Shown piece after piece: positions 24,532 to 61,065 of a stretch of 64,000 nt of DNA; the first letter of the stretch is position 1; each line of letters begins with the position of its first letter. The notes under the pieces are model-generated. The model saw only the letters and a list, made by a program, of their open reading frames with translations. It was not told the DNA's origin and searched no databases. Source of the stretch: Parcubacteria bacterium C7867-001 (GTDB lineage: Bacteria > Patescibacteriota > Minisyncoccia > Phycocordibacterales > Phycocordibacteraceae); assembly GCA_001189095.1 (NCBI GenBank), contig LFCK01000004.1, forward strand, positions 5,674 to 69,673, in the 5' to 3' direction. A program made the position numbers and the translations under genes.

Positions 24532-24557
24532 AGTTTCGTGCTATAACAGCCAAGCAC

Positions 24558-24642
24558 GGAGGCGTCGCATAGTGGTCTAGTGCACCACCTTGGAAAGGTG
24601 GCATACCGCAAGGTATCGAGAGTTCGAATCTCTCCGCCTCCG
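24558..24642 (+). tRNA. tRNA-Ser (anticodon GGA)
   Basis: Cloverleaf with a long variable arm; anticodon loop ttGGAaa. Confidence 0.8.
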
Positions 24643-24652
24643 CCCGAAGTAT

Positions 24653-25246: not shown

Positions 25247-25294
25247 ATCGAACCCCCTCCGCCGTTTTTGTTTATTTTGTGGTATAATGCACAA

Positions 25295-25645
25295 CGGACC
25301 GATTCAGACGATCGCTCTCAGGATAGGAATGTCCCGAAGGGAGGAAAGTCCGAGCACAGGCATTCGCAAGGATGCAGCAGGGTAGCGGGTAACGCCCGTC
25401 CGCGGAAACGCGCGAGGTGCGAGCAGTGACGTCAAACGCGAAAGCGCGCGACAACCTTCGGGTTGAAGTCCATCGAAAGGTGGAAGTGAAACGGCTAAAT
25501 CCTTACTTCTGTGCAAGGCCGTATCGATAATCTTCGGATATGTCGAGGCGCCGCTTGAGGTGTACGGTAACGTACATCCCAGATAGATGATCGTCCGTGT
25601 AGCAATACGCGACAGAACTCGGCTTATCGAATCGGTATCCACTTC
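25295..25645 (+). ncRNA. rnpB: RNase P RNA (bacterial type A)
   Basis: P4 GGGAGGAAAGTCCGAGCACAG, GGTAACGCCCG, and the 3' element AGATAGATGATCG...ACAGAACTCGGCTTATCG; TATAAT -10 at 25284-25289; terminator at 25652-25673. Confidence 0.9.
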
Positions 25646-25651
25646 ATGAAT

Positions 25652-25673
25652 AAACCCGCCTCACGGCGGGTTT
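25652..25673 (+). terminator. Intrinsic terminator after rnpB
   Basis: aaacccgcc-tcac-ggcgggttt. Confidence 0.65.
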
Positions 25674-25754
25674 ATTCATACCCTTTGAAACTTTAGCCGT
25701 ATCCGTACGGTATACTTTTTGTATTATCGGCAGTAGCAGTAGTTACCTTTATAT

Positions 25755-43190: not shown

Positions 43191-44435
43191 ATGAAAACCA
43201 GACAGGTTCTTATCGTCATCGCGTTCCTCCTCGTTATTGGTGGTGGATACGGTACGTATACGTATCTAAAGGAGAAACCGCCACATTGGTTGATTGGTCT
43301 CCTCACGCGCACTGCACCGCCGCCGCCACTTCCCGAAGGAGAGACGGCGCCGCTTACGCTACCGGAAGGTTTTGTAGCAACCATTTTTGCACGGGACATC
43401 ACGGGTGCACGTGTCATGCTTCGTGACCCAAAAGGCACGCTACTCGTTTCTGAAACGGGGGTAGGGAAGGTTGTCGCGCTCCCTGATGTAAATAGCGATG
43501 GAGTTGCAGACAAAACAGTTACGGTGCTCGAGGGTCTGAGACAACCGCACGGCCTTTCCATCATTTGTGCTGACACAGGAAACGCGAGCGCCGATCAGGA
43601 TGCCTGCATGCTCTACGTTGCGGAAACAGGTTCACTCAAGTCGTATGCGTATGACGCCGACACCATGAAAGCGTCGAGTCCAACAGAGCTTGCCCAATTT
43701 CCAGCGGGTGACGGCCACTTTACTCGCACACTGCTTCCCGCGAAGGATAACTCGGGACTCTTCATTTCAATTGGATCTTCGTGCAACGTTTGCAACGAGA
43801 AGAATCCGTTACGTGCGACCGTACAGCTCTTTGATTTCGCAACGCAGAAGCTGACGACGTATGCAACGGGGCTACGCAACACGGTCTTTATGGCGTATGA
43901 CCCCGTGACCGGCGCGCTCTGGGGAACGGACAATGGGCGTGATGTCATTGGTGAGGATATTCCACCGGACGAAGTAAATATCATCAAACAAGGCGGCAAT
44001 TACGGGTGGCCCGTTTGTTACGGCGCAAACATAAACGATCGCGACTTTGATAAAAACGTCTACATTCAGAATCCTTGTAACGGAAAAATCGCACCGCATA
44101 TTGAGCTTCAGGCGCACTCAGCGCCGCTCGGACTCGCGTTCATTCCCGAAGAAGGTTGGCCGGCGGATATGCGTAACGACCTTCTCGTCGCGTATCACGG
44201 CTCATGGAATAGGTCCGTACCAACTGGCTACAAAGTTGTGCGCTTCAATCTCGACGGTTCGCGCAAAGCGTCGGGAGGTCCTATCGACTTCGTTACCGGC
44301 TTTCTTGCTGCAGGAGCAGAAGAAGACGCTGCAATAGGAAGGCCGGTCGGACTTCTTGCAGAGCCAGGTGGCGTCGTGTATCTCTCCGATGATCGAGCGA
44401 ACGCCATCTACAAGATTCGCTACGCAGGGAACTAA
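43191..44435 (+). CDS. PQQ-dependent sugar dehydrogenase-like beta-propeller protein
   Basis: Signal anchor and a GGNYGWP motif. Confidence 0.65.
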   Translation: MKTRQVLIVIAFLLVIGGGYGTYTYLKEKPPHWLIGLLTRTAPPPPLPEGETAPLTLPEGFVATIFARDITGARVMLRDPKGTLLVSETGVGKVVALPDVNSDGVADKTVTVLEGLRQPHGLSIICADTGNASADQDACMLYVAETGSLKSYAYDADTMKASSPTELAQFPAGDGHFTRTLLPAKDNSGLFISIGSSCNVCNEKNPLRATVQLFDFATQKLTTYATGLRNTVFMAYDPVTGALWGTDNGRDVIGEDIPPDEVNIIKQGGNYGWPVCYGANINDRDFDKNVYIQNPCNGKIAPHIELQAHSAPLGLAFIPEEGWPADMRNDLLVAYHGSWNRSVPTGYKVVRFNLDGSRKASGGPIDFVTGFLAAGAEEDAAIGRPVGLLAEPGGVVYLSDDRANAIYKIRYAGN

Positions 44436-45377: not shown

Positions 45378-45546
45378 GGAGAGGTGGCTATGAATATAGT
45401 GGGATTATATTCATCCGCGTAGACGGGAGTGTCCGAGGAGGACACGAAGTCACCGAACCGATGAAATACGGAGAGGTGGCTACGAACATGATGGGATCGT
45501 GTTCGTCCCCGAAGAGGGGAGTGTCCGAGGAGGACACGAAGTCACC
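45378..45546 (+). repeat. Two tandem ~77-nt cloverleaf-like repeats (R1 45378-45454, R2 45470-45546), each starting with the first 12 nt of tRNA-Ser (GGAGAGGTGGCT)
   Basis: Closing stem ggtggc/gtcacc plus three hairpins; R1 versus R2 differences are compensatory within the stems. Confidence 0.6.
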
Positions 45547-47214
45547 TCGATTGAGTGAAGCGAAGGAGAGGTGGCTGAGTGGTCGAAGGCACCACACTCG
45601 AAATGTGGCGTACGGGAAACTGTACCGAGAGTTCGAATCTCTCCCTCTCCGCAATACTGGTGAAGAGGTGGCGAAAGCTACCTCTTTTCCTTTATCTACT
45701 TGGGTTTTTAGCAGTTCGTAATCTTTATTCAGCTTCGGTACCCACTCAACCAATAATTGAGCCGCATCTGTGTAGAATCTCCTTATTTCAAGCCTGTTTT
45801 GCTGTAAGTTCGTAAAGATTTGTGAAAAGAGTAATCGCTTCTCATCATTGTTGGCTTTCTCATAGATTTCCCGTGCCTTGTACGCGAGTTCGTGCACAGC
45901 AACTCCTAACTGTAGGTATTCATCGTTCTTATCACCACAACGAACCAGGGCGCTTTCAAGAGCCTCTTCCTCGGTTATCAAATCTCCAATCTTTCTCTCG
46001 AAAAATTCTGCTGGAGCCTCACGATTTATCTTTGCTTCATAGAGCTTATCCTTTTGGGCGCGAACACCTTGCAGCAATCCGTTGAGACGCTTCACATCAC
46101 TTTCGCGTTCAGTAATCTGCTCACTGTGTTGGCTTCTTAAAATATCTTCAATAGCCGAAAGCACACGCTCATCTTTTGGAGCGATGCTATCAAAAATATC
46201 AATAAGCTGTAATTCAACTCTATCCTCTCGAATGCCTGTCTTTTGAGGACAGTTCTTAAAGGCGGTACTGTTATTACAATGCCCGTACCAATTACCTTTC
46301 TTTTGATACCACGTAACCATCCCACCGCATCCCTCACAGAAAATCTTGCTCTTAAATAAAGCGTTGTGCTTTTGATACTTTGGATTCTTCATCTGTCGTC
46401 TCAAGACAAGCTGCACTTTCTCAAAAACATCCCTAGCGACAAGCGGCTCGTGAGTTCCAGGGTACACTTCTCCTAGCCATCGTATTTTGCCGATATAGAA
46501 AGGGTCTTGCAGTAAGTTATAGATTCGGGATTTCAATAGCATCTTGCCGCTCGTATTGCGCAATCCAGCATCGTAAAACTCTTTTTCCAGTCGCTTGAGT
46601 GAATAATCTCCCGTTGCGTACAACTCAAACATTTTCTTTATATGAAAAGCAACAGCCTCATTAGGCGCGTGGATTTTATGTCCTTTTTCTCCCACACACT
46701 TGTAGCCAATAAGAGGCTTGGCAGGTAGTCCGCCTTGTGCGATTTTTTCCTTTTGCCCCTTCTTCACTTCTTCTGAAAGATTTGTAACGTACTTTTTCGC
46801 AAGCACAATTTCAATATCCCACCTAAACTTCTCATCAGATTTAGCATTTTTGTGAATGACAAGATTTTGTTTTACGAAATGGATTTGTCTTTCTTCGTTA
46901 GCCTCAAGCCAGTCATTGATAGCTAGAGCATCTTTAAGGTTTCTGGTAAGTCGGTCAACTTTTTCGCAGAGGATATTAGTGACTCTATTTTTCTCTGTGA
47001 ATTTAATCATCTCATCGAATACCTTGCGTTGCTTGGCTCCGCTTGCTGATTCTGCCATCGAAAATATCTTTACGACGGTCAACTTTCTTTTATCAGCATG
47101 TTCTTTAAGTAATTTTTCCTGTGAATCGAGGGAATATCCAGTTTCTTCCTGTTCTCTTGAGGAGACTCGACAGTAGAGTACAGCTTTTGGTTTTAATTCT
47201 TTGTTAGTAGTCAT
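45388..47214 (-). CDS. Large serine recombinase (resolvase domain + recombinase domain + zinc ribbon + coiled coil); the last ~90 codons run antisense through tRNA-Ser and the repeats
   Basis: N-terminal AVLYCRVSSREQ (catalytic Ser), a CEGCGG...HCNN zinc ribbon and a long coiled coil. Confidence 0.8.
   Translation of the reverse strand: MTTNKELKPKAVLYCRVSSREQEETGYSLDSQEKLLKEHADKRKLTVVKIFSMAESASGAKQRKVFDEMIKFTEKNRVTNILCEKVDRLTRNLKDALAINDWLEANEERQIHFVKQNLVIHKNAKSDEKFRWDIEIVLAKKYVTNLSEEVKKGQKEKIAQGGLPAKPLIGYKCVGEKGHKIHAPNEAVAFHIKKMFELYATGDYSLKRLEKEFYDAGLRNTSGKMLLKSRIYNLLQDPFYIGKIRWLGEVYPGTHEPLVARDVFEKVQLVLRRQMKNPKYQKHNALFKSKIFCEGCGGMVTWYQKKGNWYGHCNNSTAFKNCPQKTGIREDRVELQLIDIFDSIAPKDERVLSAIEDILRSQHSEQITERESDVKRLNGLLQGVRAQKDKLYEAKINREAPAEFFERKIGDLITEEEALESALVRCGDKNDEYLQLGVAVHELAYKAREIYEKANNDEKRLLFSQIFTNLQQNRLEIRRFYTDAAQLLVEWVPKLNKDYELLKTQVDKGKEVAFATSSPVLRRGRDSNSRYSFPYATFRVWCLRPLSHLSFASLNRGDFVSSSDTPLFGDEHDPIMFVATSPYFIGSVTSCPPRTLPSTRMNIIPLYS
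45565..45651 (+). tRNA. tRNA-Ser (anticodon CGA)
   Basis: Long variable arm; anticodon loop ctCGAaa; followed by the hairpin at 45671-45695. Confidence 0.8.
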
Positions 47215-47230
47215 AAATTTATTTGGAATG

Positions 47231-47575
47231 TTATTTCTTGGAGAAGTGTTTTGTGAGAATCACTGTCACAAGAATCGTTATTATTAAAATAAGCGCAAAC
47301 ACGATTACATTTCCATATTCATTTATGCCTGCTTGCGAAGGCGCGTTCTCTGCGGTAGTTGTCGGTTGAATTTTCAAGGCATCAAGCTCACTTCGGATTT
47401 CTTGGACTTGCGTTTTCAGTTCAGTATTTTCTTGCTGGAGATTTGAGCTTGGTTGCTGATTCTGCTGTCTTTGATAGTAAGTCTGTATACACGTTTGAAG
47501 CGCAGCCTCATCAGTGGTCTTACAACCTGTTGCAGTATCTTGATATTGTTTTTGAAACTGTAGAATTTTTGCCAT
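47231..47575 (-). CDS. Tail-anchored coiled-coil membrane protein, element-encoded (ORF extends to 47731)
   Basis: Gln-rich coiled coil and a C-terminal TM (VIVFALILIITILVTVILT). Confidence 0.4.
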   Translation of the reverse strand: MAKILQFQKQYQDTATGCKTTDEAALQTCIQTYYQRQQNQQPSSNLQQENTELKTQVQEIRSELDALKIQPTTTAENAPSQAGINEYGNVIVFALILIITILVTVILTKHFSKK

Positions 47576-47772
47576 AGGTGCTAGCACCTGTAGCAGTCCG
47601 TTACGCAAAAAGGGACAGCCCAGGAGCCTGCTACCCACAAGATTGAATTGCACGAGGCAACCAATTGCGGAGGTCTGGACTGCCCCTTTTCGCCCACAAT
47701 TGGGGCTTAAAAAAGCAGAGACCTCGTGCACTATTCAAAACTTATGGGTAGCATAGTAAGTATAGCAAGATG

Positions 47773-47988
47773 TCAGCTTTTGGCAAGTTCAATATCACTA
47801 CTTTTTATTGCCATTTTTATTGCGCTTGCTAATAGCTGAGTTCTTGACCAGCAAACATCCTCGTCGAGGTACCAAGACATCTTAATTTCATCCAACTCTA
47901 CCTTTGTGAGTTCTCGTCCAAAATTTGCTTCAGCAAAACTTTGGATTTCATCCGTATCAAACTCAACTGTAAGTAATATTTCTTCCAT
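47773..47988 (-). CDS. Small acidic hypothetical protein, element-encoded
   Basis: 71-aa ORF, pI acidic by eye. Confidence 0.4.
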   Translation of the reverse strand: MEEILLTVEFDTDEIQSFAEANFGRELTKVELDEIKMSWYLDEDVCWSRTQLLASAIKMAIKSSDIELAKS

Positions 47989-48031
47989 TTTTTTGGTTAG
48001 TTAAATTTATAAATCTCTATATGATGAAATT

Positions 48032-49768
48032 TTACCCATCATCAGCACTAAAGGGTACGAGGGAGCAGAAGACGCTGTTTTTACCACCCTTCTTTGTGAA
48101 AAGTTGTGAATCTTTAATCATCTCTTCTATGGCTGTCTTGAATGTTGAGTGACCTGTTTTAATCCCAGTCTTTTCGACCAACTTCCATATCTCACTTTTG
48201 ATTAAGGGGGTGCCAGTGTCCTCTAATGCTAGTTGGATAGAGGTTTTCAATTCCTCCTTTTTATTTGTTCTACCTTTGCTCTGTCCTCCATATTTGAAGT
48301 AACCTTTTTCACCGTCACTGTGCAAGCGAACTACAAAAGGTTCCATTTCTTGCCCCTCTCGTAATTTGTTTTGCTGGATGGTTACACTAGCGTCATTGCC
48401 ACGTCTATCAACGGCGAGGTGACAATCCACTTGGGCAAGAATATCTGATGAGCCGCGCATATCCTGTGACGCGTTACTCCTGTCAGCTCCTTTCTTGCGA
48501 TGATGATGGATAACAATGACCGCAATGCCATGATTGGTAACTTCCTTAAAGTGCTTCATTACTTCTCTCATTTCGCTTGCTACATTTTCATCTGAATCGT
48601 GGATACAGATGAGGGAGTCGAAAATCACAAGCTCGATATTTTTGCTTTTCGCAAATTCAATAACTTTTCCTACACTCTCCTTAGTGAGCAAAAAGTCTTT
48701 TTTGGAAGCAATGAAAATAGGCAGCTCGTTATTCTGCAAAAGCAGCTTCGCTCTATCTTTCAGAATCCGTGGATGATTCTCTTCGTCAATAATCAGCACA
48801 GGGCTTTGCCTGGTCTGAAATTCGTCAAATAGCTTCTCACCGCCAGCTATCTTTAGTGCAATATCTAGAGTAATAAAAGTTTTATAAGACCTGGGTGCTC
48901 CAGAAATGATAGTGACAGCTTCGTGTGGAATCAGTCTCTCAACAAGCCATTTAGTATTTTTGTATTCAGTTACAAGTAGTTGTGAAAGCGGTACCGCATC
49001 TATGCCACGGCTAGTTTTAGGTTCGCTTTTTTCTGCTCTCTGTTTCAGCTCTCGATTGGCAATACTGTTGAAGACATTTTTTAATTCTGCATCTGGAAGA
49101 GGTGGTTTGTTGTTTTGATTCCAGCGTTGCATACCAAGCCATACCAGCTCCCAGGTATCCTCTGGAAGATAACCCAGCATTTTTCCTGCCATCTGCGCCG
49201 ATACCTCATTTCTACTTCCTTCCATTACTGGTTTTGCAATGGTTGCTTTCCAGTCAGCATCTTTTTCTTCCTCTCCGAAAGCCCAGTGCGGTAGTTCTGC
49301 AAGTTCCATTTCGCCTGGAGGGATGTTCCAAACGTATTGATTGCCAGATGAAAGTAAAGAGGGTGGCACTACCACGTATCCACCATCAGCTCTAATATCA
49401 ACATTGGGTACAATGCGCACTCGATTCTTCACTTCTCGACCAGGGTGTTTGCAAAATATGTGCCGTCCGCCGCTTGCAGTTTGAGATGCAACAGTAAGAG
49501 GCAGTGGGTAGTCAATTTTTTCTGGAGTATCTATATCAATGACAACAATTCCAGAGATAGCGCCTGTAACGATTCCCACATTCGCATCTGGGTATCTTGT
49601 GAACCACGCCTCAATCTCTTTTTTCGTGGCTCTGGTACGTTGGTAGACTTCCCACTTAATGAGAGCTTTCTTATCTTTGCCGATTGGTATAACAGACCAG
49701 CCTAAATCAGCATATTGAAGCGCGGCTATGAGGTTTTGATTTTCATTTTTCATAAAATTATTTGGCAT
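48032..49768 (-). CDS. Bifunctional PrimPol-domain primase + AAA_25/RecA-like ATPase (replicative primase-helicase of a mobile element)
   Basis: PrimPol motifs GIVVIDIDTP, GGRHIF, DIRADGGYVVVPPS; Walker A GAPRSYKT; Walker B ELVIFDS. Confidence 0.75.
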   Translation of the reverse strand: MPNNFMKNENQNLIAALQYADLGWSVIPIGKDKKALIKWEVYQRTRATKKEIEAWFTRYPDANVGIVTGAISGIVVIDIDTPEKIDYPLPLTVASQTASGGRHIFCKHPGREVKNRVRIVPNVDIRADGGYVVVPPSLLSSGNQYVWNIPPGEMELAELPHWAFGEEEKDADWKATIAKPVMEGSRNEVSAQMAGKMLGYLPEDTWELVWLGMQRWNQNNKPPLPDAELKNVFNSIANRELKQRAEKSEPKTSRGIDAVPLSQLLVTEYKNTKWLVERLIPHEAVTIISGAPRSYKTFITLDIALKIAGGEKLFDEFQTRQSPVLIIDEENHPRILKDRAKLLLQNNELPIFIASKKDFLLTKESVGKVIEFAKSKNIELVIFDSLICIHDSDENVASEMREVMKHFKEVTNHGIAVIVIHHHRKKGADRSNASQDMRGSSDILAQVDCHLAVDRRGNDASVTIQQNKLREGQEMEPFVVRLHSDGEKGYFKYGGQSKGRTNKKEELKTSIQLALEDTGTPLIKSEIWKLVEKTGIKTGHSTFKTAIEEMIKDSQLFTKKGGKNSVFCSLVPFSADDG

Positions 49769-49940
49769 TGTCTTTGCTTGCTTCTTGATGGAGACGCAAA
49801 TTGATTTTGGCGAGCGTAACGTAAAAAGTAGCGAAGTCTTTTAGAAGTTTCTGTATCTCGCTTTCAGAACGTCCTTCAAAAACACCTGTCTCTTCAATAG
49901 GGATTCGCAGCTTCGCAAGTTGTTGCGGTGTGAACTCCAT
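49758..49940 (-). CDS. Small hypothetical protein (60 aa), element-encoded
   Basis: Internal ATG of ORF 49758..50021; abuts the stop of the 49942..50181 ORF. Confidence 0.25.
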   Translation of the reverse strand: MEFTPQQLAKLRIPIEETGVFEGRSESEIQKLLKDFATFYVTLAKINLRLHQEASKDNAK

Positions 49941-49941
49941 A

Positions 49942-50181
49942 TTATTTGAGAGCGTACAGACGATTCTTGAGCTGCTTTTGATTACTAAAGAGGCTCTGTA
50001 TCGAAACAGAGATTTCAGCACCAGCCCAATAATCGCTTACAGCTTTTTCAAATCCTTCTGCGCGGCGAAATAGAAAGTTTATTCGTTTCGCATCTGCACG
50101 CTCCAAGCCGACCAAATCAAATTGGAGAGTAAGCAAAAGGGTTGCGAGTCCCAGGTCACTAATTTTTTCTGTATCTTCCAC
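49942..50181 (-). CDS. Small hypothetical protein (79 aa), element-encoded
   Basis: ORF only. Confidence 0.3.
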   Translation of the reverse strand: MEDTEKISDLGLATLLLTLQFDLVGLERADAKRINFLFRRAEGFEKAVSDYWAGAEISVSIQSLFSNQKQLKNRLYALK

Positions 50182-50321
50182 ATAGAGATTGTCCCAATAA
50201 TCGCCGCCGTTTTTTAGTGTTTGTCAGCAATATTTCTCTTTTGAAATACACTCACAAAAACAGCCGCCATACGGCGACTAATTCGAGTTATCAACAAACG
50301 GAAGTAAATGGTAATAAAAAT

Positions 50322-51023
50322 CTACTTCTTTGGAGGGTTATGGAGCGCAATGCCTACTCTTGGCTCAATGCGAACGTAGCCCTTGATGAAATCTCCCGCT
50401 TGGCGATAAAGACCGTTATGAACAGCATTTTTGATACGCTCAATTTTCTTTTCTTTCTCCTCCAGCTTCGACTGATTATAAAGCGGCTTTTCAAGCTCGT
50501 CATTCAATTCTTCGTAAGTCATTGACCTGCTCAAGCCATCATCGCCGTAGAGGATATTTAGAACAAAATAATGAATCGAAGAATAAGTATCAAATGGAAT
50601 TTTTCTGTCGTTGCAATAAAAATCATTTCCGTGTTTTTCGATTGTGCGGATTACAGTATGGGCAGACGCTAGGGAGGCGATATGTTTTTTTAGCTTCGAT
50701 TCATCAACCTCTATCACGTAAACCTCTTCCTCTTTTCCTGCCTGGTCTCCATCATCAAATTGCGACTCGCTCCCAGTTTCTTCAAAAATCTGATGCTTTT
50801 CTTCCGCCTTCTTTATAAAAAATCCCCATCGTGCGCGGTACTCTTTGACAGCCCCCACTTTTTTCAATCGCTCCAGTGATACCTCAACTTCTTCTTTTGT
50901 AACTCCTCGGACATTGAAATCTTTTACCTTGATAGCAAGAGGGCGAACGCTCTTGGAGTCGTTCGCAACAATTTTGGCTACTATTATTTCGCTATCTTCA
51001 ATACTCATTCCCATAATAATCAT
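50322..51023 (-). CDS. Hypothetical protein, element-encoded, with an acidic central region
   Basis: 233-aa ORF divergent from the xis-like gene. Confidence 0.45.
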   Translation of the reverse strand: MIIMGMSIEDSEIIVAKIVANDSKSVRPLAIKVKDFNVRGVTKEEVEVSLERLKKVGAVKEYRARWGFFIKKAEEKHQIFEETGSESQFDDGDQAGKEEEVYVIEVDESKLKKHIASLASAHTVIRTIEKHGNDFYCNDRKIPFDTYSSIHYFVLNILYGDDGLSRSMTYEELNDELEKPLYNQSKLEEKEKKIERIKNAVHNGLYRQAGDFIKGYVRIEPRVGIALHNPPKK

Positions 51024-51091
51024 AGTCTAACAGAACTTGCCAAAACTTGCCACACACAACCAAAAGAGCTAAACTGTAAGGACATAACATT

Positions 51092-51268
51092 ATGAAACAA
51101 GAAAAGTATTTAACACTGCAAGAAGCAGCAAAAATCTTAGACGTTAGTGAGCGCTCAATGTTCCGCTACATCCATAGTGGAAGGCTTAAAGCCAGCAAGA
51201 TTGGTTCCTGGCGTATCAAAGAAAAAGACCTTGAAGATTTTATTAAAAAAAGTTCCAACCTTTCTTAG
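51092..51268 (+). CDS. Excisionase-family HTH (HTH_17/Xis-like) DNA-binding protein, 58 aa, not in the ORF track
   Basis: LTLQEAAKILDVSERSMFRYIHSGRLKASKIGSWRIKEKDLEDFI; its stop TAG is immediately followed by the PHP-ATPase start. Confidence 0.65.
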   Translation: MKQEKYLTLQEAAKILDVSERSMFRYIHSGRLKASKIGSWRIKEKDLEDFIKKSSNLS

Positions 51269-51280
51269 GTGTCTGATTTT

Positions 51281-54200
51281 ATGAGTAAATCACTTTACAA
51301 CCGAGGTTCAGAGTGGAGAAAATGGGATTTACATATTCATACCCCAGCTTCTTTTCATTGGAACGGTGGAAAGAGATTTTTCGAGATGACTGCGCCAGAA
51401 AAAGAGCAGGCATTTCAGAAAATGCTTGAGACTATAAATAATTCCGATGTTGCTGCTTTCGCAATGACTGATTATTGGACGTTTGATGGATATTTAGAAT
51501 TTAAGGATTATATAAAAAGGAAAAATCTAAAACTTAATAAGACCGTATTTCCTGGAATGGAGTTGAGAGTAGAAGCACCCGTAGACTACCGATTAAATAT
51601 CCAGGTAATTCTTTCAGACGAGCTGACTGCTCAACAACTCAAGGACTTTAAAGCAAAGTTAAGAATAGGTAGCCTTAATAGGAGTCTTTCAGATGATGCC
51701 ATAAAAGAATTCGCCCAAACTCTGGACGACAGCAAAGCAAAAACTCACGGTTTTAAATCACCTTCGACTCTTAACGACACAGAACTACTTGAACTTGGTT
51801 CTAAGACTGTAGTAGTCACAAAAGAATCTCTTTGCAGAGATGCTTTTACTGCAATTCCACCAAAGTGCGGGTACATTCTTTTACCTTATGACACATCAGA
51901 CGGCTTGGTGAAGTTGGATTGGGCTACTCACCCTCACGATGACAACTACTTTATGCAGTCCGCTCATATTTTTGAATCGCGCAATGATGAGTGTATTGAT
52001 TTGTTTTTATGCAAAGAGACACCCAAAAATAAGAGTTTTATCAAGAATTTTATTAAGACGATAGGGGGTAAACCAAAACCAGTTGTCTCTGGTAGTGATG
52101 CCCATAAAATTGAAGACTACGGAAATTATCCTAGTGGGAAAATTACTTGGATAAAAGCTGATGTTACTTTTCAGGGTTTAAGACAAGTTGTTAATGAACC
52201 TGCGGATAGAGCATATGTTGGAACTTCTCCACTTAAGCTTATTGAAGTAGCGAATAATAAATCTAAATACGTAGACTCAATTAAGATTGCACACACTTCA
52301 CCAGGCACCACGCCTGCTTGGTTTTCCAGTAAACTGCCACTAAACAGTGGTTTCGTTGCTATTATTGGTAAAAAAGGAAGCGGTAAAAGTGCACTTGCGG
52401 ACATCGTGAGTCTTTGTGGTGACAGTAAGATAAACCCAAAGGATTATTCATTTCTCACAACCCAGAAGTTTAAAAAGCGTAGCTTGGCAAAAAATTATGA
52501 GGCTAATCTCACGTGGCTTGATGCCCAAGAAATATCTAAAAACTTGGACAGCGAGGTTGAGGTTGCTACCTCTGTTGAAAGAATAAAATACCTACCGCAG
52601 CAATATGTTGAAACTATCTGTAATGAGGAAGGTGTTAGTATTTTGTTTCAGCAAGAGATTGATAAAGTAATTTTTTCTTATGTCCCAGATGAGAGCAGGC
52701 TTGGCACAAATAGCTTGGCAGAGTTGATAAAAACAAAAACAGAATCAGTGGACGGTTCTATTTCTGTGTTACGTACAGAGTTGCATAGAATTAACGAAAA
52801 AATAACTTTACACGAAGACAAAGAAGCTCCTAAGTATGAGGAATCTTTAAATAAGAAACTTGAAGAGAAGCAACGTGAACTCAAGAATCTCCCTCAGCCG
52901 AAAGTTGTTAAGAAGCCTAAGACTACTTTAAACAAAGCAACGGAAGCCAAGATTAAAAGGCTCACCGCGTCCATTACTAAGTTTGATGAACAAATAACAG
53001 TTGCAAAGCAAGAGTTAAAAGATGTTAACGGCAGACTCCATAAACTTGAGAAGATTACTGATAAAGTTACTTCTCTTGGTGGAGATGTTGAAGCATTTAT
53101 TGAAACTTTCCAAGAAGATGCAACTGGAATGGGCATTGACCTTACCAAAGTCCTAAGTCTCAAAATAAATGACGGAGTCCTTAAGACGAAGAAGACGGAG
53201 CTGTCTGCGGAAAAAGAAAAATTGGATGAGAAGCTAGAACAGAACAATCCTAAATCAACGACAAGTTTTTATATCAAGAAGGCAAAGCAGGAAGCAGAGT
53301 TGGCGAAGATTACAGCTACACTTGATGCAGACCAAAAACAATACAAGGAGTATTTGCAAGCACTCAAGGAGTATGGAGAGAAAAAGCAAGCAATTGAAGG
53401 GAAAAAGGGTGATACAAGTTTGGATACTATAATTTCCCTTGAAGAAGAAATTGATTTTGTTAAAAACAAGCTCAAGGGTTTTTTGCAGCAAGGATATAAG
53501 AAACGCGAGGAAACCCTAAAAAAAGTTTTTAAAGAGCTGGGACAAAAAATTAAGTTCTACCAAGAAATCTATACCCCAATCGTTAGTTTTATTGAAAGTG
53601 AAAAAGAAACCCAAGAAAAATCTGGTAATGTTTTAAGTTTCAGTGCGGGGCTTGTCTTTGGGCGACCCAAATTTGTTGATGACTTCTTTTCTTTTGTGAA
53701 TCAAGGCAAGGACGGAAGTTTTCAAACTGTTGCGGGTGGTCAAAAAATACTCAACGCAATTATGGATAAGTATGACCTCACTAAAGAGGACGGGGTATGT
53801 GGATTTACCGAAGACCTTTTGACTCACCTTAGAAATGACAATACTGGAACAACTCCAAAAACAAATCACATCAAGTCTCAACTCAAGAAAGACCAGACTG
53901 ACTTCTACGATTATGTATTCAACCTTGATTACCTAGATGTGAAGTACAAAATCCTTTTCAACGGGAAGGATTTGAACGCCAATGAATTTTCGCCTGGAGA
54001 GAAAGGTGCGCTACTGCTCATTTTCTATTTACTGATTGATAAGGAGAACATACCTCTAGTGATTGACCAGCCAGAAGAAAACCTTGATAACGAATCAGTC
54101 TATACATTACTTGTCCCGTACATTAAAAAAGCAAAGAGTAGACGACAAATTATTGCCGTTACTCATAACCCCAACCTTGCCGTGGTATGTGACGCGGAGC

Positions 54201-54358
54201 AGATTATCTGTGCATCAATGGATAAGAAGAAGTCGGAAGTAAAATATGTTTCTGGAAGTATTGAGGACTCGGATATTAACAAAAAAATTGTAGACATTCT
54301 GGAGGGTACGTTACCTGCCTTTACGGTAAGAGATAGAAGTTATATTAGGAGAAACTAA
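51281..54358 (+). CDS. PHP-domain phosphoesterase fused to an SMC/OLD-like ABC ATPase with a long coiled-coil insertion (alternative GTG start 51269)
   Basis: PHP motifs WDLHIHT, MTDYW, GSDAH; Walker A GKKGSGKS; coiled coil about aa 480-800; ABC signature FSPGEKG; Walker B LVIDQPEENLD; H-loop VTHNPN. Confidence 0.7.
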   Translation: MSKSLYNRGSEWRKWDLHIHTPASFHWNGGKRFFEMTAPEKEQAFQKMLETINNSDVAAFAMTDYWTFDGYLEFKDYIKRKNLKLNKTVFPGMELRVEAPVDYRLNIQVILSDELTAQQLKDFKAKLRIGSLNRSLSDDAIKEFAQTLDDSKAKTHGFKSPSTLNDTELLELGSKTVVVTKESLCRDAFTAIPPKCGYILLPYDTSDGLVKLDWATHPHDDNYFMQSAHIFESRNDECIDLFLCKETPKNKSFIKNFIKTIGGKPKPVVSGSDAHKIEDYGNYPSGKITWIKADVTFQGLRQVVNEPADRAYVGTSPLKLIEVANNKSKYVDSIKIAHTSPGTTPAWFSSKLPLNSGFVAIIGKKGSGKSALADIVSLCGDSKINPKDYSFLTTQKFKKRSLAKNYEANLTWLDAQEISKNLDSEVEVATSVERIKYLPQQYVETICNEEGVSILFQQEIDKVIFSYVPDESRLGTNSLAELIKTKTESVDGSISVLRTELHRINEKITLHEDKEAPKYEESLNKKLEEKQRELKNLPQPKVVKKPKTTLNKATEAKIKRLTASITKFDEQITVAKQELKDVNGRLHKLEKITDKVTSLGGDVEAFIETFQEDATGMGIDLTKVLSLKINDGVLKTKKTELSAEKEKLDEKLEQNNPKSTTSFYIKKAKQEAELAKITATLDADQKQYKEYLQALKEYGEKKQAIEGKKGDTSLDTIISLEEEIDFVKNKLKGFLQQGYKKREETLKKVFKELGQKIKFYQEIYTPIVSFIESEKETQEKSGNVLSFSAGLVFGRPKFVDDFFSFVNQGKDGSFQTVAGGQKILNAIMDKYDLTKEDGVCGFTEDLLTHLRNDNTGTTPKTNHIKSQLKKDQTDFYDYVFNLDYLDVKYKILFNGKDLNANEFSPGEKGALLLIFYLLIDKENIPLVIDQPEENLDNESVYTLLVPYIKKAKSRRQIIAVTHNPNLAVVCDAEQIICASMDKKKSEVKYVSGSIEDSDINKKIVDILEGTLPAFTVRDRSYIRRN

Positions 54359-54501
54359 TTTCTGAATCATAATTCTAAAGGCGGATACTCTCCAAAAGTT
54401 GTATATACTCAAGGCGATATGCCTTGTATAATTTTCAAATAAATTTTACCTATAGATATTTGAACACTTGCAAACATATAACTATGTAGTAATATGTTTG
54501 T

Positions 54502-54816
54502 ATGAGTAGAAACCAAGTAGAACTTGAAGCCAAACTATTTAAAGGCTTTGCTGACCAATCCCGCCTCTTAATACTATCCACTATTTTAGGCCAACCAAAA
54601 ACTGTAAGTGAAATTGTTGATGAAACAAAACTTTCTCAACCAAACACTTCGGCTCATTTAGCGTGTCTTTTGGAATGTGGTCTTATTCGTAACGAAAAGA
54701 AAGGACGAGAGGTTTTTTATGAAGTTTCAGGCAAAGAAGTTGTGGGTATGCTTCAACAGGCACAAAAAGTTTTGAAAAAACACTCCAAGGAGATTTATGA
54801 ATGCACAAACTACTAA
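54502..54816 (+). CDS. ArsR/SmtB-family metalloregulator
   Basis: wHTH and a Cys pair LACLLEC. Confidence 0.7.
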   Translation: MSRNQVELEAKLFKGFADQSRLLILSTILGQPKTVSEIVDETKLSQPNTSAHLACLLECGLIRNEKKGREVFYEVSGKEVVGMLQQAQKVLKKHSKEIYECTNY

Positions 54817-55439
54817 CTATGTGTAAAGAAGATAACGACAATTTAGACCTTTCCCATATAAACCCCGCATATAAGCGGGCACTATGGATAGTGGTCATAC
54901 TCAATCTAGGTTATGGAATAGCCGAAATGATTGGTGGGTTTTTAGCTAACTCTCAAGCTCTTAAAGCTGATGCTTTAGATTTCCTTGGAGACGGTTCAAT
55001 TACATTTATAGGACTGCTTGCTATAGGTTGGTCATTGAGATGGCGTGCTCGTTCTGCTCTTACCCAAGGCATATTCCTAGGAATTATGGGTCTTGGAGTA
55101 ATAACGACTACAGCGTATAAGATATTTGTGCTAAACACACCTGAAGCAGAACTTATGGGCATATTAGGAGTTATTGCTCTTGTTATAAATGTGATTTCGG
55201 CTGTCGTGCTAATTCCTCATCGCCACGGAGACGCTAATATGCGGTCAGTATGGCTTTTCAGCCGTAATGATGCCTTTGGCAATTTAGCTGTGGTTATTGC
55301 TGCAGGTATAGTTTATTGGACAAACACCTCTTGGCCAGACCTTGTAGCCGCACTTATCATCGCAGGATTATTTCTTCATTCGTCTTGGTCGATTATCAAA
55401 GACGCACGAAGAGATTTAAGTAAAATTAACAACAAATAA
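54801..55439 (+). CDS. Cation diffusion facilitator (CDF) transporter, membrane domain only (no C-terminal cytoplasmic domain)
   Basis: 6 TM helices; HRHGD and ExxxD-like motifs; overlaps the arsR stop. Confidence 0.6.
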   Translation: MHKLLTMCKEDNDNLDLSHINPAYKRALWIVVILNLGYGIAEMIGGFLANSQALKADALDFLGDGSITFIGLLAIGWSLRWRARSALTQGIFLGIMGLGVITTTAYKIFVLNTPEAELMGILGVIALVINVISAVVLIPHRHGDANMRSVWLFSRNDAFGNLAVVIAAGIVYWTNTSWPDLVAALIIAGLFLHSSWSIIKDARRDLSKINNK

Positions 55440-55450
55440 TAAATAAAATT

Positions 55451-55645
55451 ATGTCTATAAAAAGTGCCCTCAATTTTGACCGTCATCACATTTTTCTTAC
55501 TAACGCCAGCCATCTTGCTCTTGGGTTTGGATTAGCTTTAGTTTTGCAGCATTATATTTCTGGCAATGCCTTTCTTCCAGTTGTCATAGGTTGGGTTTTG
55601 ATAGGGTTTGGTTTACTTACTCACTTGGTTGCGTGGACAAAATAA
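55451..55645 (+). CDS. Small membrane protein
   Basis: 64 aa, 2 TM helices. Confidence 0.35.
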   Translation: MSIKSALNFDRHHIFLTNASHLALGFGLALVLQHYISGNAFLPVVIGWVLIGFGLLTHLVAWTK

Positions 55646-55766
55646 ATGTTTCTAAATAGGGTTTATGCTTGGTGTATAGAGCGGTTAAAATTAGCATCTA
55701 TAGGTATATAGAATTTTACCCATAAGAAAGAGAGGTCTACGCCCTTTTGTATGCATCTGTTTGTTT

Positions 55767-55901
55767 TTGGTACTAAATGGTACAAAACTACACACCTGAT
55801 AGTAATTTTGCCAGTACCATGTCTGTATTTGATGCTAGTCCTATGGTACTAACTGATAGTGGAAAGATGGTACATATAGAACTGTACATACCAGTACGTA
55901 C
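55767..55901. repeat. Cluster of (A)TGGTAC iterons (at least 5 copies, one inverted) near the right end of the low-GC element
   Basis: Copies at 55767, 55776, 55814 (reverse complement), 55843, 55867, plus degenerate gtaca/gtacgtac. Confidence 0.5.
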
Positions 55902-56200
55902 CCAGACAAGAAAATTTTTCCTAAAAATAGCTCCTGGGATATGGGCTGTCCCCCCTAAAATAAAATCTCACGCCAGGGAAACACCCACCACCCCAAATAC
56001 GAAAAATGGAGCTTCTATGCTCCTTTCCTTGAACCGAGTATAATAAGCCCATTAGGGGGCTGTTTAAGCCACAATAGCGAGCAACTGACGCATCTGTTGC
56101 AGGGAGACGCTAGGATAAGGGAAGATTTCTTCCCATTTAACAGTTCGTACATAGTCCCCCCAAGCCCGCAGATGACAAAGAAGGCGCGCAAGCGCCTCTT

Positions 56201-57070
56201 TTGTTTGGTGTAAGATTCTATATATATCCGTATGGAACTCCTTTCCTACACATGGACGTACTTGGCGCAGGCACCAGCAGTATGGAATTAATTGCAGGCG
56301 ATAAAGAGCTTGAAGCGCTCAATATTCAGCTCAACGATCCAACGCAGCTTGCGGCGTACAAGGGACCGCTGGATACCTACCGGCCGCACCTCCTCCCGAG
56401 GGTATTCGGATCTTTTTTGGTGTTTTGCGGCAACCTTGTGTACGGGCGCGAACCGTCCTATCTAAAGTTTCGAGCGGTTGAGATAATTGCGCGCGTGCCA
56501 TATCACTCGTGGTCATCTGCTGCTTTTACGCTCCTGACTCTGTTCTTTTCGAATGAGAAAAAAGCCTTGCGGCTGTCGAATGTTGCGCGCTACTCGCGTA
56601 TTGCTTCTGACAACGAAACCATGCATGTGGTTGTTATTTCCCAGCTTGCGAGAAAAGAAGTAAAAGCGGGTTATGTTCGGCACACCCTTGTTCCGATGCT
56701 GTTCGCCTTTTTCTACTTCTGGGCTTCCTATTGGATGTACCTTATCCGTCCGCGCTGGTCATATGAACTGAACTATCTGTTCGAATCACATGCGTTTGCG
56801 CAGTACGACAGATTCCTTGAATTGCATGACGAGGAGTTGCGACACAAAGCAGTCGAAAGCGATTTCCTCGCATGGTACGGACGTACGCCGATACATCAGT
56901 ATGACTTCTTCCGCTCGGTACGTAATGATGAGATTGTGCATCGAAATCAGTCTATTCACGACATCGACGAGGAAGCGGATCTGCGCCGCATTCGTCTCCT
57001 GAAACGCATCGCGCTTTTCGTTGTTGGGGTACTGCTGGTGCTCGTTGCCGCCGCTGTTCTGCTTGTTTGA
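56201..57070 (+). CDS. Alternative oxidase (AOX/PTOX)-like diiron carboxylate protein
   Basis: Four helix motifs matching the AOX iron-ligand motifs: AVEIIARVP, NETMHVV (NERMHL), FESHAFAQY (LEEEA..Y), RNDEIVHR (RADEAHHR). Confidence 0.6.
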   Translation: MFGVRFYIYPYGTPFLHMDVLGAGTSSMELIAGDKELEALNIQLNDPTQLAAYKGPLDTYRPHLLPRVFGSFLVFCGNLVYGREPSYLKFRAVEIIARVPYHSWSSAAFTLLTLFFSNEKKALRLSNVARYSRIASDNETMHVVVISQLARKEVKAGYVRHTLVPMLFAFFYFWASYWMYLIRPRWSYELNYLFESHAFAQYDRFLELHDEELRHKAVESDFLAWYGRTPIHQYDFFRSVRNDEIVHRNQSIHDIDEEADLRRIRLLKRIALFVVGVLLVLVAAAVLLV

Positions 57071-57122: not shown

Positions 57123-57284
57123 ATGGAAAAGATAAAAATCGAACAACATACGGTTTCGGGCGGCGCATGGATTGCGGCGTGGATGTTCACTATCGGCTAC
57201 CTCCATCTTTCATTCTGGAACGGAGTACTTGCGGTGGTCATCTGGCCGTATTTCCTCGGTGCGTATTTCGCAGCACCAATGTAA
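57123..57284 (+). CDS. Small membrane protein
   Basis: 53 aa, 2 TM helices; bidirectional terminator at 57293-57327. Confidence 0.35.
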   Translation: MEKIKIEQHTVSGGAWIAAWMFTIGYLHLSFWNGVLAVVIWPYFLGAYFAAPM

Positions 57285-57334
57285 GGAAAATAAAAACACC
57301 CGGCCGCGAAAGCGGCCGGGTGTTTTTTAATCGT

Positions 57335-57763
57335 TTATACCCACGCCGTGAGAATGGCGCCCATGAGGATGAGGGAGACTAGATAGTAGCCGCCTTGGAT
57401 AAGCCAGAGCTTCCATGGTTTTCCTTCCCAGATCACGACGCCGAGTGTCACTGGTGCGATAAAGCCAAGCCAGCTCCAGAACGCCCCTTGAAGGGCTGAA
57501 GGGAATCCGCCGATACCAAGATAGCTTTGAGCGAAGACGAGACTGTGAGCAAAAACGTACGCCATGATGAAGGTTGTAATCGCCATCCCAAGATAGCTCA
57601 TCATCATTTTTCGCTTTATCGCCTTTGTTAGTACGGCTGGCTTTTCAATACCAACGAGCTTCATCCACTGCTTGCCGAAGAGGGGGCCGTACCACAACGT
57701 TCCGAGAACGATGGCGGCAAGCGTGGCTCCGAATACGGAGAGATAATTAATGGGTACTTCCAT
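57335..57763 (-). CDS. DUF1761-like membrane protein
   Basis: 142 aa, 4 TM helices. Confidence 0.45.
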   Translation of the reverse strand: MEVPINYLSVFGATLAAIVLGTLWYGPLFGKQWMKLVGIEKPAVLTKAIKRKMMMSYLGMAITTFIMAYVFAHSLVFAQSYLGIGGFPSALQGAFWSWLGFIAPVTLGVVIWEGKPWKLWLIQGGYYLVSLILMGAILTAWV

Positions 57764-59339: not shown

Positions 59340-59828
59340 GTGAATAAACCAAAAAAGCGCGTTAGTAAATTCACACCCGGAGACTATCGTCTCCGGGTCG
59401 GACGTTCGTCTGCGGGGCTCGGCCTTTTTGCCGAAGAGGGGATTCCGAAAGGGAAATGCATCATCGAGTACGTTGGTCGCACCGTTTCAAAGGAAGAGGA
59501 GACGACGAGTCGTAGCAAATACCTTTTCGAGGTGAACAAGAACAAGACTATCGACGGAAAGCCGAAGTGGAACAAGGCGGGCTACATCAATCACTCCTGC
59601 AAGCCGAATTGCGAGATAGAGATACGCAACGCACGCGTCTATGTTATGGCGCTCCGGAATATCAAGCCAGGCGAGGAACTCTTTTACGATTATGGCGAGG
59701 AATATTTCGATGAACACATCAAGCCGTTTGGGTGTCGGTGCGTAAAGCACAAAAATAAGAACCGACCCGCGCATGCGCGGGCCGTATTCATGAAGGAAAG
59801 AAGTGGGGAAAAACTACGTCTGCTATAG
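59340..59828 (+). CDS. SET-domain protein (putative lysine methyltransferase)
   Basis: NHSCKPN and ELFYDYG SET signatures plus a C-terminal Cys-rich post-SET-like segment (FGCRCVKHK). Confidence 0.75.
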   Translation: MNKPKKRVSKFTPGDYRLRVGRSSAGLGLFAEEGIPKGKCIIEYVGRTVSKEEETTSRSKYLFEVNKNKTIDGKPKWNKAGYINHSCKPNCEIEIRNARVYVMALRNIKPGEELFYDYGEEYFDEHIKPFGCRCVKHKNKNRPAHARAVFMKERSGEKLRLL

Positions 59829-59835
59829 TGAGCCT

Positions 59836-61065
59836 ATGTCGCATTTCACTCCTCTTTCGCGTGCGTTTATCGGCGTATTTTTCGCTTTCGCGCTTCTTGT
59901 GAGTGCGGCGCCTTCGGCGAACGCAGCAACCTCCTCGTTTGAAATTTCTGGATGGATTCCGTACTGGCGCACAGCGACCGGCACTGCTGACGTGCTCCCA
60001 CATCTTTCCCAGCTTACCGAAGTGAATCCGTTCGGTTACACCGTGAAGCAGGACGGCTCTCTTTATGACGTTGCAAAGTTCACACAAGAACCGTGGACGA
60101 ATTTCTTTGCAAAAGCAAAGGCGGCGAAAGTCCGCGTTATACCGACGGTCATGTGGAGCGACACTGAGTCAATCGACCGCATTCTGCGCGACCCGAAACT
60201 CCGTGCCGAGCACGTGAAGAACATCGTCGCGAAAGTGAACGAGATGGGCTTCGACGGCGTCGATATCGACTACGAAGGCAAGAAAGCAGAAACGAAGCAG
60301 TACTACTCTGCCTTCCTCAAAGAGCTCTATGCAGCTATGGGAAAGAAGTGGGTTATGTGCACCATCGAGGCACGAACACCAGTCGACTCTCGGTATCTCG
60401 GTACGCCGCCAGCGGATGCCACGACCTACGCAAATGATTTCGTCGCTATCAATAAATACTGCGATCGTGTACGGCTCATGACGTATGACCAGCAGTTCGT
60501 CGATCAGAAACTCGTAAAGGCGAATAAGGGTGTGCTCTATGCTCCGGTCGCAGATCCTCTGTGGGTTGAAAAAGTCGTGAAGCTCGTGAAGAAGGACATA
60601 AAGGCGTCGAAGTTGGTGGTCGGCATCGCGACGTACGGCTACGACTACCAAGTCATTCCTAATTCTGATGGTAGCGGGTATTCCTACACGCTCGTTGAGG
60701 CATTCAATCCGAAATACGCACTCGATACTGCGGCTGAATTTGGCATCACGCCAACGCGCAACGCTGCAGGGGAGATGAGCTTCTCGTATGTTCCCTCAAA
60801 TACTCCGTCCATGCTTCCATCGCAACAGTCGCTCGAAGCGCTCGCACCATCGGGAACCACGTCGAGCTATCTCGCTGCTGCGGGTGCCCTCGCGCTCCAG
60901 AAAAATAGCGGCAAGCAGGCGCCGTTCCATGTTCTGTGGTGGAGCGACTCGAAAGCCATTGCGGACAAAGTTGCACTCGCGAAGAAGCTCGGTGTGCGTG
61001 GAGTCGCCGTCTTTAAGTTCGATGGGGGAGCGGATCCCCTCATGTGGAGTGTGTTGAAGAAGTAA
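59836..61065 (+). CDS. Secreted glycoside hydrolase family 18 (chitinase/peptidoglycan hydrolase-like)
   Basis: Signal peptide and GH18 catalytic motif FDGVDIDYEG. Confidence 0.7.
   Translation: MSHFTPLSRAFIGVFFAFALLVSAAPSANAATSSFEISGWIPYWRTATGTADVLPHLSQLTEVNPFGYTVKQDGSLYDVAKFTQEPWTNFFAKAKAAKVRVIPTVMWSDTESIDRILRDPKLRAEHVKNIVAKVNEMGFDGVDIDYEGKKAETKQYYSAFLKELYAAMGKKWVMCTIEARTPVDSRYLGTPPADATTYANDFVAINKYCDRVRLMTYDQQFVDQKLVKANKGVLYAPVADPLWVEKVVKLVKKDIKASKLVVGIATYGYDYQVIPNSDGSGYSYTLVEAFNPKYALDTAAEFGITPTRNAAGEMSFSYVPSNTPSMLPSQQSLEALAPSGTTSSYLAAAGALALQKNSGKQAPFHVLWWSDSKAIADKVALAKKLGVRGVAVFKFDGGADPLMWSVLKK

Follow-up and report, generated by a model that had tools for sequence, protein, structure and literature searches.

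A divergent diiron protein of the alternative oxidase superfamily in Parcubacteria

Introduction

The alternative oxidase (AOX) and PTOX proteins make up a superfamily of membrane-bound diiron carboxylate oxidases, in which authentic PTOX are plastoquinol oxidases. Canonical AOX is rare in bacteria, and one hit from the candidate phyla radiation (CPR) has been remarked upon as 'probably' a transfer from Proteobacteria (PMC9540462). CPR bacteria have been characterised as obligately fermentative, with neither electron transport chains nor oxygen reductases; the principal survey behind this picture, which was restricted to haem-copper and bd oxidases and left AOX out, found one of these in 3 of 492 single-cell genomes of Patescibacteria (PMC7507113). 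Orphan cytochrome o quinol oxidases of other CPR bacteria (Saccharibacteria) have been interpreted as a means of O2 detoxification (PMC9530719; PMC9938205). Many CPR lineages nevertheless grow in oxic groundwater, and how they tolerate oxygen is described as an open question (PMC9938205; PMC12577380). The subject of the present analysis is a gene of Parcubacteria bacterium C7867-001 that encodes a diiron protein of the AOX superfamily. It is located in a stretch of 64,000 nucleotides (contig LFCK01000004.1, positions 5,674 to 69,673), called here the window, in which its coding sequence most likely occupies positions 56282..57070 of the forward strand (262 amino acids and a stop codon). In the literature searched, no description was found of the clade to which the protein belongs, nor of AOX in the metabolism of CPR or DPANN organisms.

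Family assignment and fold

The reading of the gene product as an AOX-family diiron protein, made in an original prediction from the sequence, is upheld by both profile and structural comparison. The search with PF01786 (AOX) that had been proposed as a check gave 35.6-36 bits, over a gathering cutoff of 22.7 (E ~1e-8), and AOX is the sole Pfam family matched by the window protein. The match is partial, covering residues 108-223 of 262 and profile positions 95-210 of 216; PF01786 is also matched by all 37 sequences gathered from the clade, its sister clades and PTOX-like proteins. No NCBIfam model matches the window protein. Against the PDB, a single-sequence phmmer search returned spurious GPCR matches only and no AOX, and a narrow profile of 17 family sequences found nothing at E<=10, trypanosome alternative oxidase (TAO) included; hence the protein is highly divergent. 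When the profile was broadened with sister clades and PTOX-like sequences, TAO was recovered at E 8.5e-12, and all four motifs lined up. TAO (PDB 3VV9, 9KUN) is the only AOX-family member among the PDB matches and stands throughout for the mitochondrial and proteobacterial AOX.

A first AlphaFold model, computed for a longer reading frame of 289 amino acids, was mediocre (pLDDT 80, TM ~0.5 to TAO) because of a spurious N-terminus and a tail helix. It was replaced by a core model of 228 residues based on a 51-sequence alignment, with pLDDT 94.1, pTM 0.91 and eleven helices of at least four residues. The 14 top matches of this model in a Foldseek search of the PDB are all TAO chains (TM 0.65-0.70, rmsd 3.1-4.3 Å, ~212 columns, probability 1.0), at an identity over the structural matches of 13-17%. 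The best of the other scores belongs to COQ7 (TM 0.41), followed by bacterioferritin (0.37), aldehyde-deformylating oxygenase (0.34) and MiaE (0.26). A MiaE or rubrerythrin-like protein, the assignment that the original prediction had named as speaking against AOX, was not found, since the fold matches TAO with MiaE and the ferritin-like proteins (0.37 at most) far behind, and Pfam returns AOX only. Membership of the AOX/PTOX superfamily is confirmed. The assignment is not new in itself, because databases already label some members of the clade 'alternative oxidase' or 'ubiquinol oxidase', the other named relatives being hypothetical.

Diiron site

All four iron motifs claimed in the original prediction are present, and their ligands align residue for residue with those of TAO (the numbering is that of the 262-residue form). 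The first motif, FRAVEIIARVPY (56468..56503, +), contains E67, equivalent to TAO E123, within a set of invariant residues formed by E67, A70, R71, P73 and Y74; just upstream of it, K62 aligns with TAO R118. In the second, DNETMHV (56609..56629, +), N111, E112 and H115 correspond to TAO N161, E162 and H165. The third, NYLFESHAFAQY (56771..56806, +), aligns E168, H170, A171, Q174 and Y175 with E213, E215, A216, T219 and Y220 of TAO, and in this region N164, E168, H170, A171 and Y175 are invariant in the 51-sequence alignment of the prokaryotic clades. The fourth, RNDEIVHRN (56921..56947, +), whose codons were read directly from the sequence, places D216, E217 and H220 at the positions of TAO D265, E266 and H269. 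The six iron ligands of TAO (E123, E162, H165, E213, E266 and H269) are therefore found as E67, E112, H115, E168, E217 and H220, the catalytic tyrosine Y220 as Y175, seven residues past the third ligand, the second-sphere residues N161 and D265 as N111 and D216, and the conserved alanine A216 as A171.

Conservation is strongest at these same positions. In the 37-sequence alignment, PTOX-like proteins included, there is no variation at E67, N111, E112, H115, E168, A171, Y175, D216, E217 and H220; in the 51-sequence alignment the six ligands, the tyrosine and D216 are invariant, and N111 is conserved in at least 90%. The window protein has the full diiron site (four glutamates and two histidines), the catalytic tyrosine, the Asn/Asp second sphere and a TAO-like fold.

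The surroundings of the site are different from those of canonical AOX. TAO R118 and T219, which we take to be contacts for the quinol or inhibitor head group, are both replaced in the window protein, the former by Lys62, invariant in the prokaryotic clades, and the latter by Gln174, so that neither canonical head-group contact is kept. The catalytic tyrosine is preceded by Thr in TAO and most of the aligned PTOX-like proteins, by Gln in the CPR clade and by Glu in its sister clades. TAO E215 is replaced by His170, again invariant in the prokaryotic clades.

Membrane association

Two helices of the AlphaFold model would bind the membrane. The helix of residues 37-54 (LPRVFGSFLVFCGNLVYG; 56390..56443, +), with conserved Y54 and G55, is presumably the counterpart of TAO helix alpha1, upstream of the TAO fragment that could be aligned, and would act as an interfacial membrane-binding helix. 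The aromatic and hydrophobic helix of residues 131-155 (HTLVPMLFAFFYFWASYWMYLIRPR; 56672..56746, +) aligns with the TAO segment PLRVSIIITQAIMYLFLLVAYVISPRF, which we take to be the membrane-binding helix alpha4, and a membrane role is suggested for it too. Only one segment, the hydrophobic C-terminal tail (residues ~236-262, ...IALFVVGVLLVLVAAAVLLV; 56987..57067, +), exceeds a Kyte-Doolittle mean of 1.6 over 19 residues (peak 3.27). This tail is a long helix in the first model and is predicted to be a transmembrane anchor. It is found in 44 of 119 close homologues, the remainder stopping soon past the fourth motif. Among CPR members the first 60 residues are strongly conserved; nothing in the TAO alignment corresponds to them.

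Distribution and phylogeny

The protein is 100% identical to the NCBI entry 'Oxidase [Parcubacteria bacterium C7867-001]', which confirms that the DNA is from a CPR bacterium (Patescibacteria). Clusters at 90% identity that match it at E<=1e-3 number 959; the best 120 of them are 60-80% identical, and the named ones among these 120 belong to Paceibacterota, Minisyncoccia, Yonathbacteria and Kaiserbacteria. In GTDB, taking one genome per species, relatives of 56-80% identity occur in at least 223 species, almost all of them labelled CPR; the best 80 of the 223 all carry CPR labels, apart from a few that are generic or probably mis-binned. Among 1.84 billion representative proteins, the family profile finds 490 at E<=1e-3 and 17 at E<=1e-30, so that the superfamily, viewed from the window protein, is compact. 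The rarity of bacterial AOX, claimed in the original prediction, holds for canonical AOX and does not hold for this clade. The gene is maintained by selection, to judge from 70 columns that do not vary in an alignment of 17 proteins 60-80% identical, together with the 959 clusters and 223 species.

The clade is confined to prokaryotes but is not purely bacterial. Two contigs with archaeal marker genes contain AOX-like genes whose products are ~40-55% identical to the CPR members: in one (L090) the gene (P0123, 8001-8696) is beside rpoH, a split rpoB and rpoA', and in the other (L091) the gene (P0277, 1899-2585) is beside eS31 (S27a), a GatE-type amidotransferase subunit and a beta-CASP nuclease. 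A rough neighbour-joining (NJ) tree, based on 213 trimmed columns, without support values and with TAO as the sole canonical AOX, puts TAO and the PTOX-like proteins on one side and three prokaryotic clades on the other: the CPR clade with the archaeal sequences nested in it, a clade around P0144, and the high-GC group of P0136 and P0161. In this phylogeny, which had been suggested as a check on the gene, the CPR/archaeal clade groups with the two other prokaryotic clades, apart from TAO and the PTOX-like proteins, and not inside the canonical AOX clade. The window protein, which lacks the signature motifs of canonical AOX and the long ExxH spacing of PTOX, appears from its sequence to stand outside both canonical subfamilies. 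The nesting of archaeal sequences within the CPR radiation points to inter-domain transfer and suggests that the gene has passed between domains. As far as the clade structure can tell, the published remark on a transfer from Proteobacteria is not supported.

The P0144 clade contains 1309 proteins at E<=1e-5, with Hydrogenedentes, Spirochaetota, Omnitrophica, Margulisbacteria, Marinimicrobia, Kiritimatiellae and Terriglobia among those named. The gene of P0144 itself belongs to a locus of oxidative-stress functions (L089, 504-5788), which also encodes three rubrerythrins, a rubrerythrin-SpoIIE fusion, a rubredoxin, a Fur/PerR-type regulator and MsrAB. The locus of P0161 (L087, 3002-6045) is high in GC and actinobacterium-like; there the end of the AOX-like gene is the start base of an MMPL transporter gene, the two being apparently translationally coupled, with a LuxR-type two-component system adjacent.

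Function and origin of the gene

The model favoured here, with a probability of roughly 0.55, is that of a quinol oxidase that scavenges O2. The protein would be held on the cytoplasmic membrane by its two interfacial helices, and in this subclade also by the C-terminal transmembrane tail, would accept electrons from a lipophilic quinol, and would reduce O2 to water without pumping protons. We know of no quinone synthesis in CPR bacteria, so the quinol would need an outside source; it could be acquired from the host or the environment along with membrane lipids, and be reduced by some dehydrogenase. For a fermentative, respiration-less episymbiont the benefit would be O2 scavenging, an oxidative electron sink, or both, a sensible role since Patescibacteria are described as without electron transport chains (PMC7507113). 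The oxidative-stress setting of the gene in the sister clade P0144 would point the same way. Several observations weigh against the quinol-oxidase model. The PF01786 match is modest (36 bits) and confined to residues 108-223, and the narrow family profile misses TAO altogether; two positions taken to be quinol or inhibitor head-group contacts have changed, R118 to Lys and T219 to Gln, and E215 has become an invariant His; the AOX loci offer no operon partner; and neither in the 64-kb window nor among the most frequent neighbours at 80 loci was a gene found for quinone biosynthesis, NDH-2 or another quinone reductase.

These replacements, invariant or nearly so in the clade, are also what might be expected if the same fold and diiron centre served another reaction, the protein being an oxygenase, hydroxylase or oxidase whose substrate is a membrane compound other than a quinol (such as a scavenged lipid, a polyprenyl-phenol or some other phenolic) or that receives electrons from a protein donor. 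Such a reaction would suit a lineage regarded as devoid of electron transport chains (PMC7507113) with no quinone genes found in the window. It would also agree with the weak matches to COQ7, a diiron hydroxylase, in 3 of the 37 sequences from the clade, sister clades and PTOX-like proteins, and with the coupling of the actinobacterial-looking relative to an MMPL lipid transporter. However, the catalytic tyrosine and the full second sphere of the O2-reducing AOX and PTOX are kept, the Lys and Gln that replace the presumed contacts can still form hydrogen bonds, PTOX-like relatives also have His at the E215 position, and COQ7 is the poorer structural match (TM 0.41 against 0.70). Moreover, all members of PF01786 characterised so far are, to our knowledge, quinol oxidases. 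A reaction other than quinol oxidation is thus considered rather unlikely. Next to no credit is given to the idea that another ferritin-like protein (MiaE, rubrerythrin, COQ7 or aldehyde-deformylating oxygenase) has been misread as AOX, or that the gene is a decaying relic. The partial match of 36 bits, the lack of an NCBIfam model and the failure of the single-sequence and narrow-profile searches in the PDB would be in line with it, but it is refuted by a Pfam match to AOX only, by the recovery of TAO with the broadened profile and by a fold for which TAO is the sole convincing structure (MiaE 0.26, bacterioferritin 0.37, COQ7 0.41); in addition, the reading frame is intact and every clade-invariant residue is kept.

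As regards its origin, the gene is near a low-GC island. Between 46 and 56 kb the GC content is 0.37-0.44, against ~0.54 elsewhere in the window, and an integrative element of ~10.4 kb (45712-56149) starts just past tRNA-Ser(cga) (45565-45652). The 9-bp direct repeat CAGTTCGTA is present in two copies only in the window, at 45712-45720 on the left and 56141..56149 (+) on the right, both exactly at the GC transitions. The AOX gene starts 133 bp past the right-hand copy and is therefore just outside the element, as originally predicted; the further proposal, that it was acquired horizontally since it abuts the island, is not supported, given its native GC composition, those 133 bp beyond the repeat and relatives in at least 223 species. 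The GC content of the gene is 0.503 and that of its third codon positions (GC3) 0.559, within the ranges of 25 native genes (0.503-0.585 and 0.517-0.703), while the island genes have 0.37-0.44 and 0.28-0.42, respectively. In composition the gene is native, and it does not belong to the cargo of the island. A recent arrival with the element could be argued from the short distance to the right end of the island, from a gene position unlike that in two relatives and from the archaeal subclade nested among CPR sequences, which indicates that the gene can cross domains. Besides composition and location outside the CAGTTCGTA repeats, such an arrival is opposed by the closest homologues (up to 80% identity), which are chromosomal in other Parcubacteria, by the synteny of the right flank (DUF1761, SET and GH18 genes) with other Parcubacteria and by a scan of IMG/VR viral contigs, in which no relative was found. 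Hence it is judged very improbable.

The two relatives in question, L007 (80% identity) and L013 (68%), are collinear with the window at 14.5-31.7 kb, where RNase J, SBP_5, GroEL, LemA, M48, tRNA-Ser(gga), TPR, MurJ and LepA are encoded. In both of them AOX occupies the slot past M48/tRNA-Ser(gga) and before TPR-MurJ (9831-10786 in L007, 10019-11736 in L013). The same slot in the window (24557-25755) contains an open reading frame (ORF) for a SAM methyltransferase (24590-25246), with a weak UbiE/COQ5 match, and the RNase P RNA (25296-25642). Because the slot differs, the AOX gene has been relocated in this genome, which together with the archaeal subclade indicates some mobility of the gene over evolutionary time.

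Gene structure and neighbouring genes

The uninterrupted ORF in the list for the window extends over 56201..57070 (+), with a TTG start and 289 codons. Its Met28 ('MEL..G..ELEALN') is the start column of all 16 aligned homologues, and for this reason the ATG at 56282 is taken as the probable start; the NCBI call for the identical protein is 272 amino acids. The in-frame 5' extension (56201..56281, +) is absent from all homologues, and in the model of the long ORF residues 1-32 have pLDDT values under 50. This segment is probably untranslated and would hold the promoter and leader. A scan for terminator-like structures detected a GC-rich hairpin with a T-run on either strand between the end of the island and the AOX gene (56182..56197), and a strong hairpin of 16 pairs at 57292..57327, reported on the minus strand, with A/T-rich runs read from the sequence on both sides.

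Between the AOX gene and the second hairpin there is a small hydrophobic ORF of 53 amino acids (MEKIKIEQHTVSGGAWIAAWMF...; 57123..57284, +), read from the sequence and matching no Pfam family, that is possibly co-transcribed with AOX; its one homologue (67% identity) is located ~1.2 kb downstream of AOX in locus L050. On the other side of the hairpin, and convergent, is a gene for a DUF1761 membrane protein (57335..57763, -; PF08570, 89.8 bits). The hairpin is probably a terminator shared by this gene and the unit of AOX and the small ORF. Such a convergent DUF1761 gene is found within 2 kb downstream of AOX in six loci (L024, L042, L063, L074, L082 and the window), and the genes of the right flank that recur near AOX in other Parcubacteria are those for DUF1761, a 221-residue ORF, the SET-domain protein and GH18. 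In the window the SET-domain protein is encoded at 59340-59828 (+) and the secreted GH18 chitinase-like protein at 59803-61065 (+), and both recur near AOX in several Parcubacteria loci.

On a wider scale the AOX-like gene stands alone. Neither a conserved operon partner or electron donor nor an obvious quinone reductase was found in three long contigs or by ORF clustering over 80 loci. The immediate neighbours across 74 loci are diverse and mainly on the opposite strand, the commonest being an unassigned protein of the membrane with 156 residues, a PduO-type cobalamin adenosyltransferase, an EamA transporter, a riboflavin kinase, a DsbD-like protein and PAP2. The original prediction had noticed no respiratory or quinone gene in the window, in agreement with a comparison of ~50 of its ORFs with Pfam, in which no such gene was found; the matches were to CPR housekeeping functions, MsrA and MsrB, and one generic SAM methyltransferase had a weak UbiE/COQ5 match. 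MsrA and MsrB, which repair oxidised methionine and are thus other oxidative-damage functions, are adjacent in the window (9674-10640, -), and an MsrB homologue is located ~5 kb from AOX in L007.

Two apparent regularities of the surroundings were dropped. The large gene that most closely precedes the tRNAs, the island and AOX (43191-44435, +) belongs to the GSDH family, which has the fold of PQQ-type glucose/sorbosone dehydrogenases; with the island removed it would be ~1.5-2 kb upstream of AOX, and in locus L005 a GSDH gene (4882-5979) is directly upstream of it. At E<=1e-5 there is no match between the two GSDH proteins, and a conserved link was not retained. Likewise, the 10-kb surroundings of AOX in loci L007-L086 are rich in tRNA genes, with 223 in 1.22 Mb (0.18 per kb), and a tRNA is within 150 bp of 26% of the AOX genes against 19% of other ORFs. 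Adjacency to tRNAs is not specific, because control ORFs at the same loci are nearly as close.

The island itself contains genes for a large serine recombinase (45388-47214, -) and a PrimPol/AAA_25 primase-helicase (48032-49768, -), for a 1029-residue AAA_21-type ATPase with an N-terminal 'DLHIHT' motif (51269-54358, +), for an ArsR regulator (54502-54816) and for a cation-diffusion facilitator (54801-55439).

Implications

The AOX-like protein is, as read from sequence, a plausible overlooked oxygen-consuming enzyme. A single-gene AOX-type oxidase in at least 223 species, almost all labelled CPR and with relatives on archaeal contigs, would be a testable candidate for O2 consumption in these organisms, and bears on whether episymbionts draw quinones, besides lipids, from their hosts. 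It also extends the known AOX proteins by a deep prokaryotic clade in which substrate-contact residues are altered, and which could inform quinol specificity and the origins of AOX and PTOX. A broader proposal can be put forward tentatively, as a possibility that falls short of even odds: Parcubacteria and some ultra-small archaea would hold an AOX-like clade of their own that is a real O2 reductase for respiration-less, quinone-auxotrophic episymbionts, with a quinol of the host membrane or a non-quinone compound as donor, and whose gene has crossed between CPR and archaea. If this were true, the view of Patescibacteria as ancestrally devoid of oxygen reductases, based as it is on surveys of haem-copper and bd oxidases, would overlook the most widespread O2-consuming enzyme in a CPR class that is among the largest.

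Comparison with known systems

TAO and the window protein share the diiron site in a four-helix bundle with ligands in the order E, ExxH, E, ExxH, the tyrosine, asparagine and aspartate around it, and Ala216. The distance between the two ExxH motifs is 104 in TAO, as given by the ligand numbering, and 105 in the window protein, and the membrane-binding helix alpha4 of TAO has an equivalent hydrophobic helix. The motifs differ: VEIIARVPY, DNETMHV, FESHA and RNDEIVHR in the window protein correspond to LETVAGVPG, ENERMHL, LEEEA and RADEAEHR in TAO, and the canonical AOX signatures (LET(V)AGVPG, NERMHL, LEEEA, RADEA(H)HR) are not found. The order of TAO Y246/W247 is swapped. In contrast to TAO, the window protein has a clade-specific conserved N-terminal region of 60 residues and the C-terminal tail of its subclade, and its host is without a known quinone pool or respiratory chain.

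Of the canonical relatives, PTOX-like sequences rank nearest in the HMM search (~60-70 bits). PTOX resembles the window protein in the ARVPY form of the first motif and in the His at the position of TAO E215 (E-x-H-A), although these two features alone are not diagnostic of PTOX, because the sister prokaryotic clades share both. The spacing of the ExxH motifs is ~121-140 in PTOX-like proteins, owing to an insertion before the last helix, against 105 in the window protein, which thus does not have the PTOX spacing. PTOX-like proteins retain the Arg of TAO R118 and the Thr ahead of the tyrosine, where the CPR clade has Lys and Gln, and they group with TAO in the rough NJ tree, away from the CPR/archaeal clade and from both of its sister clades. 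The latter, the P0144 group and the P0136/P0161 high-GC group, are the nearest sister clades and share with the window protein the invariant Lys62 and His170, a similar length and a spacing of 104. They differ from it in sequence (23-34% identity), in the Glu before the catalytic tyrosine, in their non-CPR hosts and in their gene contexts.

COQ7/Cat5 is also a ferritin-like diiron four-helix bundle, and acts on a quinone at the membrane; one member of the clade is labelled 'demethoxyubiquinone hydroxylase' by JGI. Its structural similarity to the window protein is low (TM 0.35-0.41, compared with 0.70 for TAO), and the Pfam COQ7 family does not match the window protein. In terms of function, the closest analogue in CPR bacteria would be the cytochrome o (bo3) of Saccharibacteria and a few others, a terminal quinol oxidase without the rest of a respiratory chain. 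Cytochrome o is a haem-copper, multi-subunit, proton-pumping enzyme that is unrelated in sequence, whereas the AOX-like protein is the product of a single small gene.

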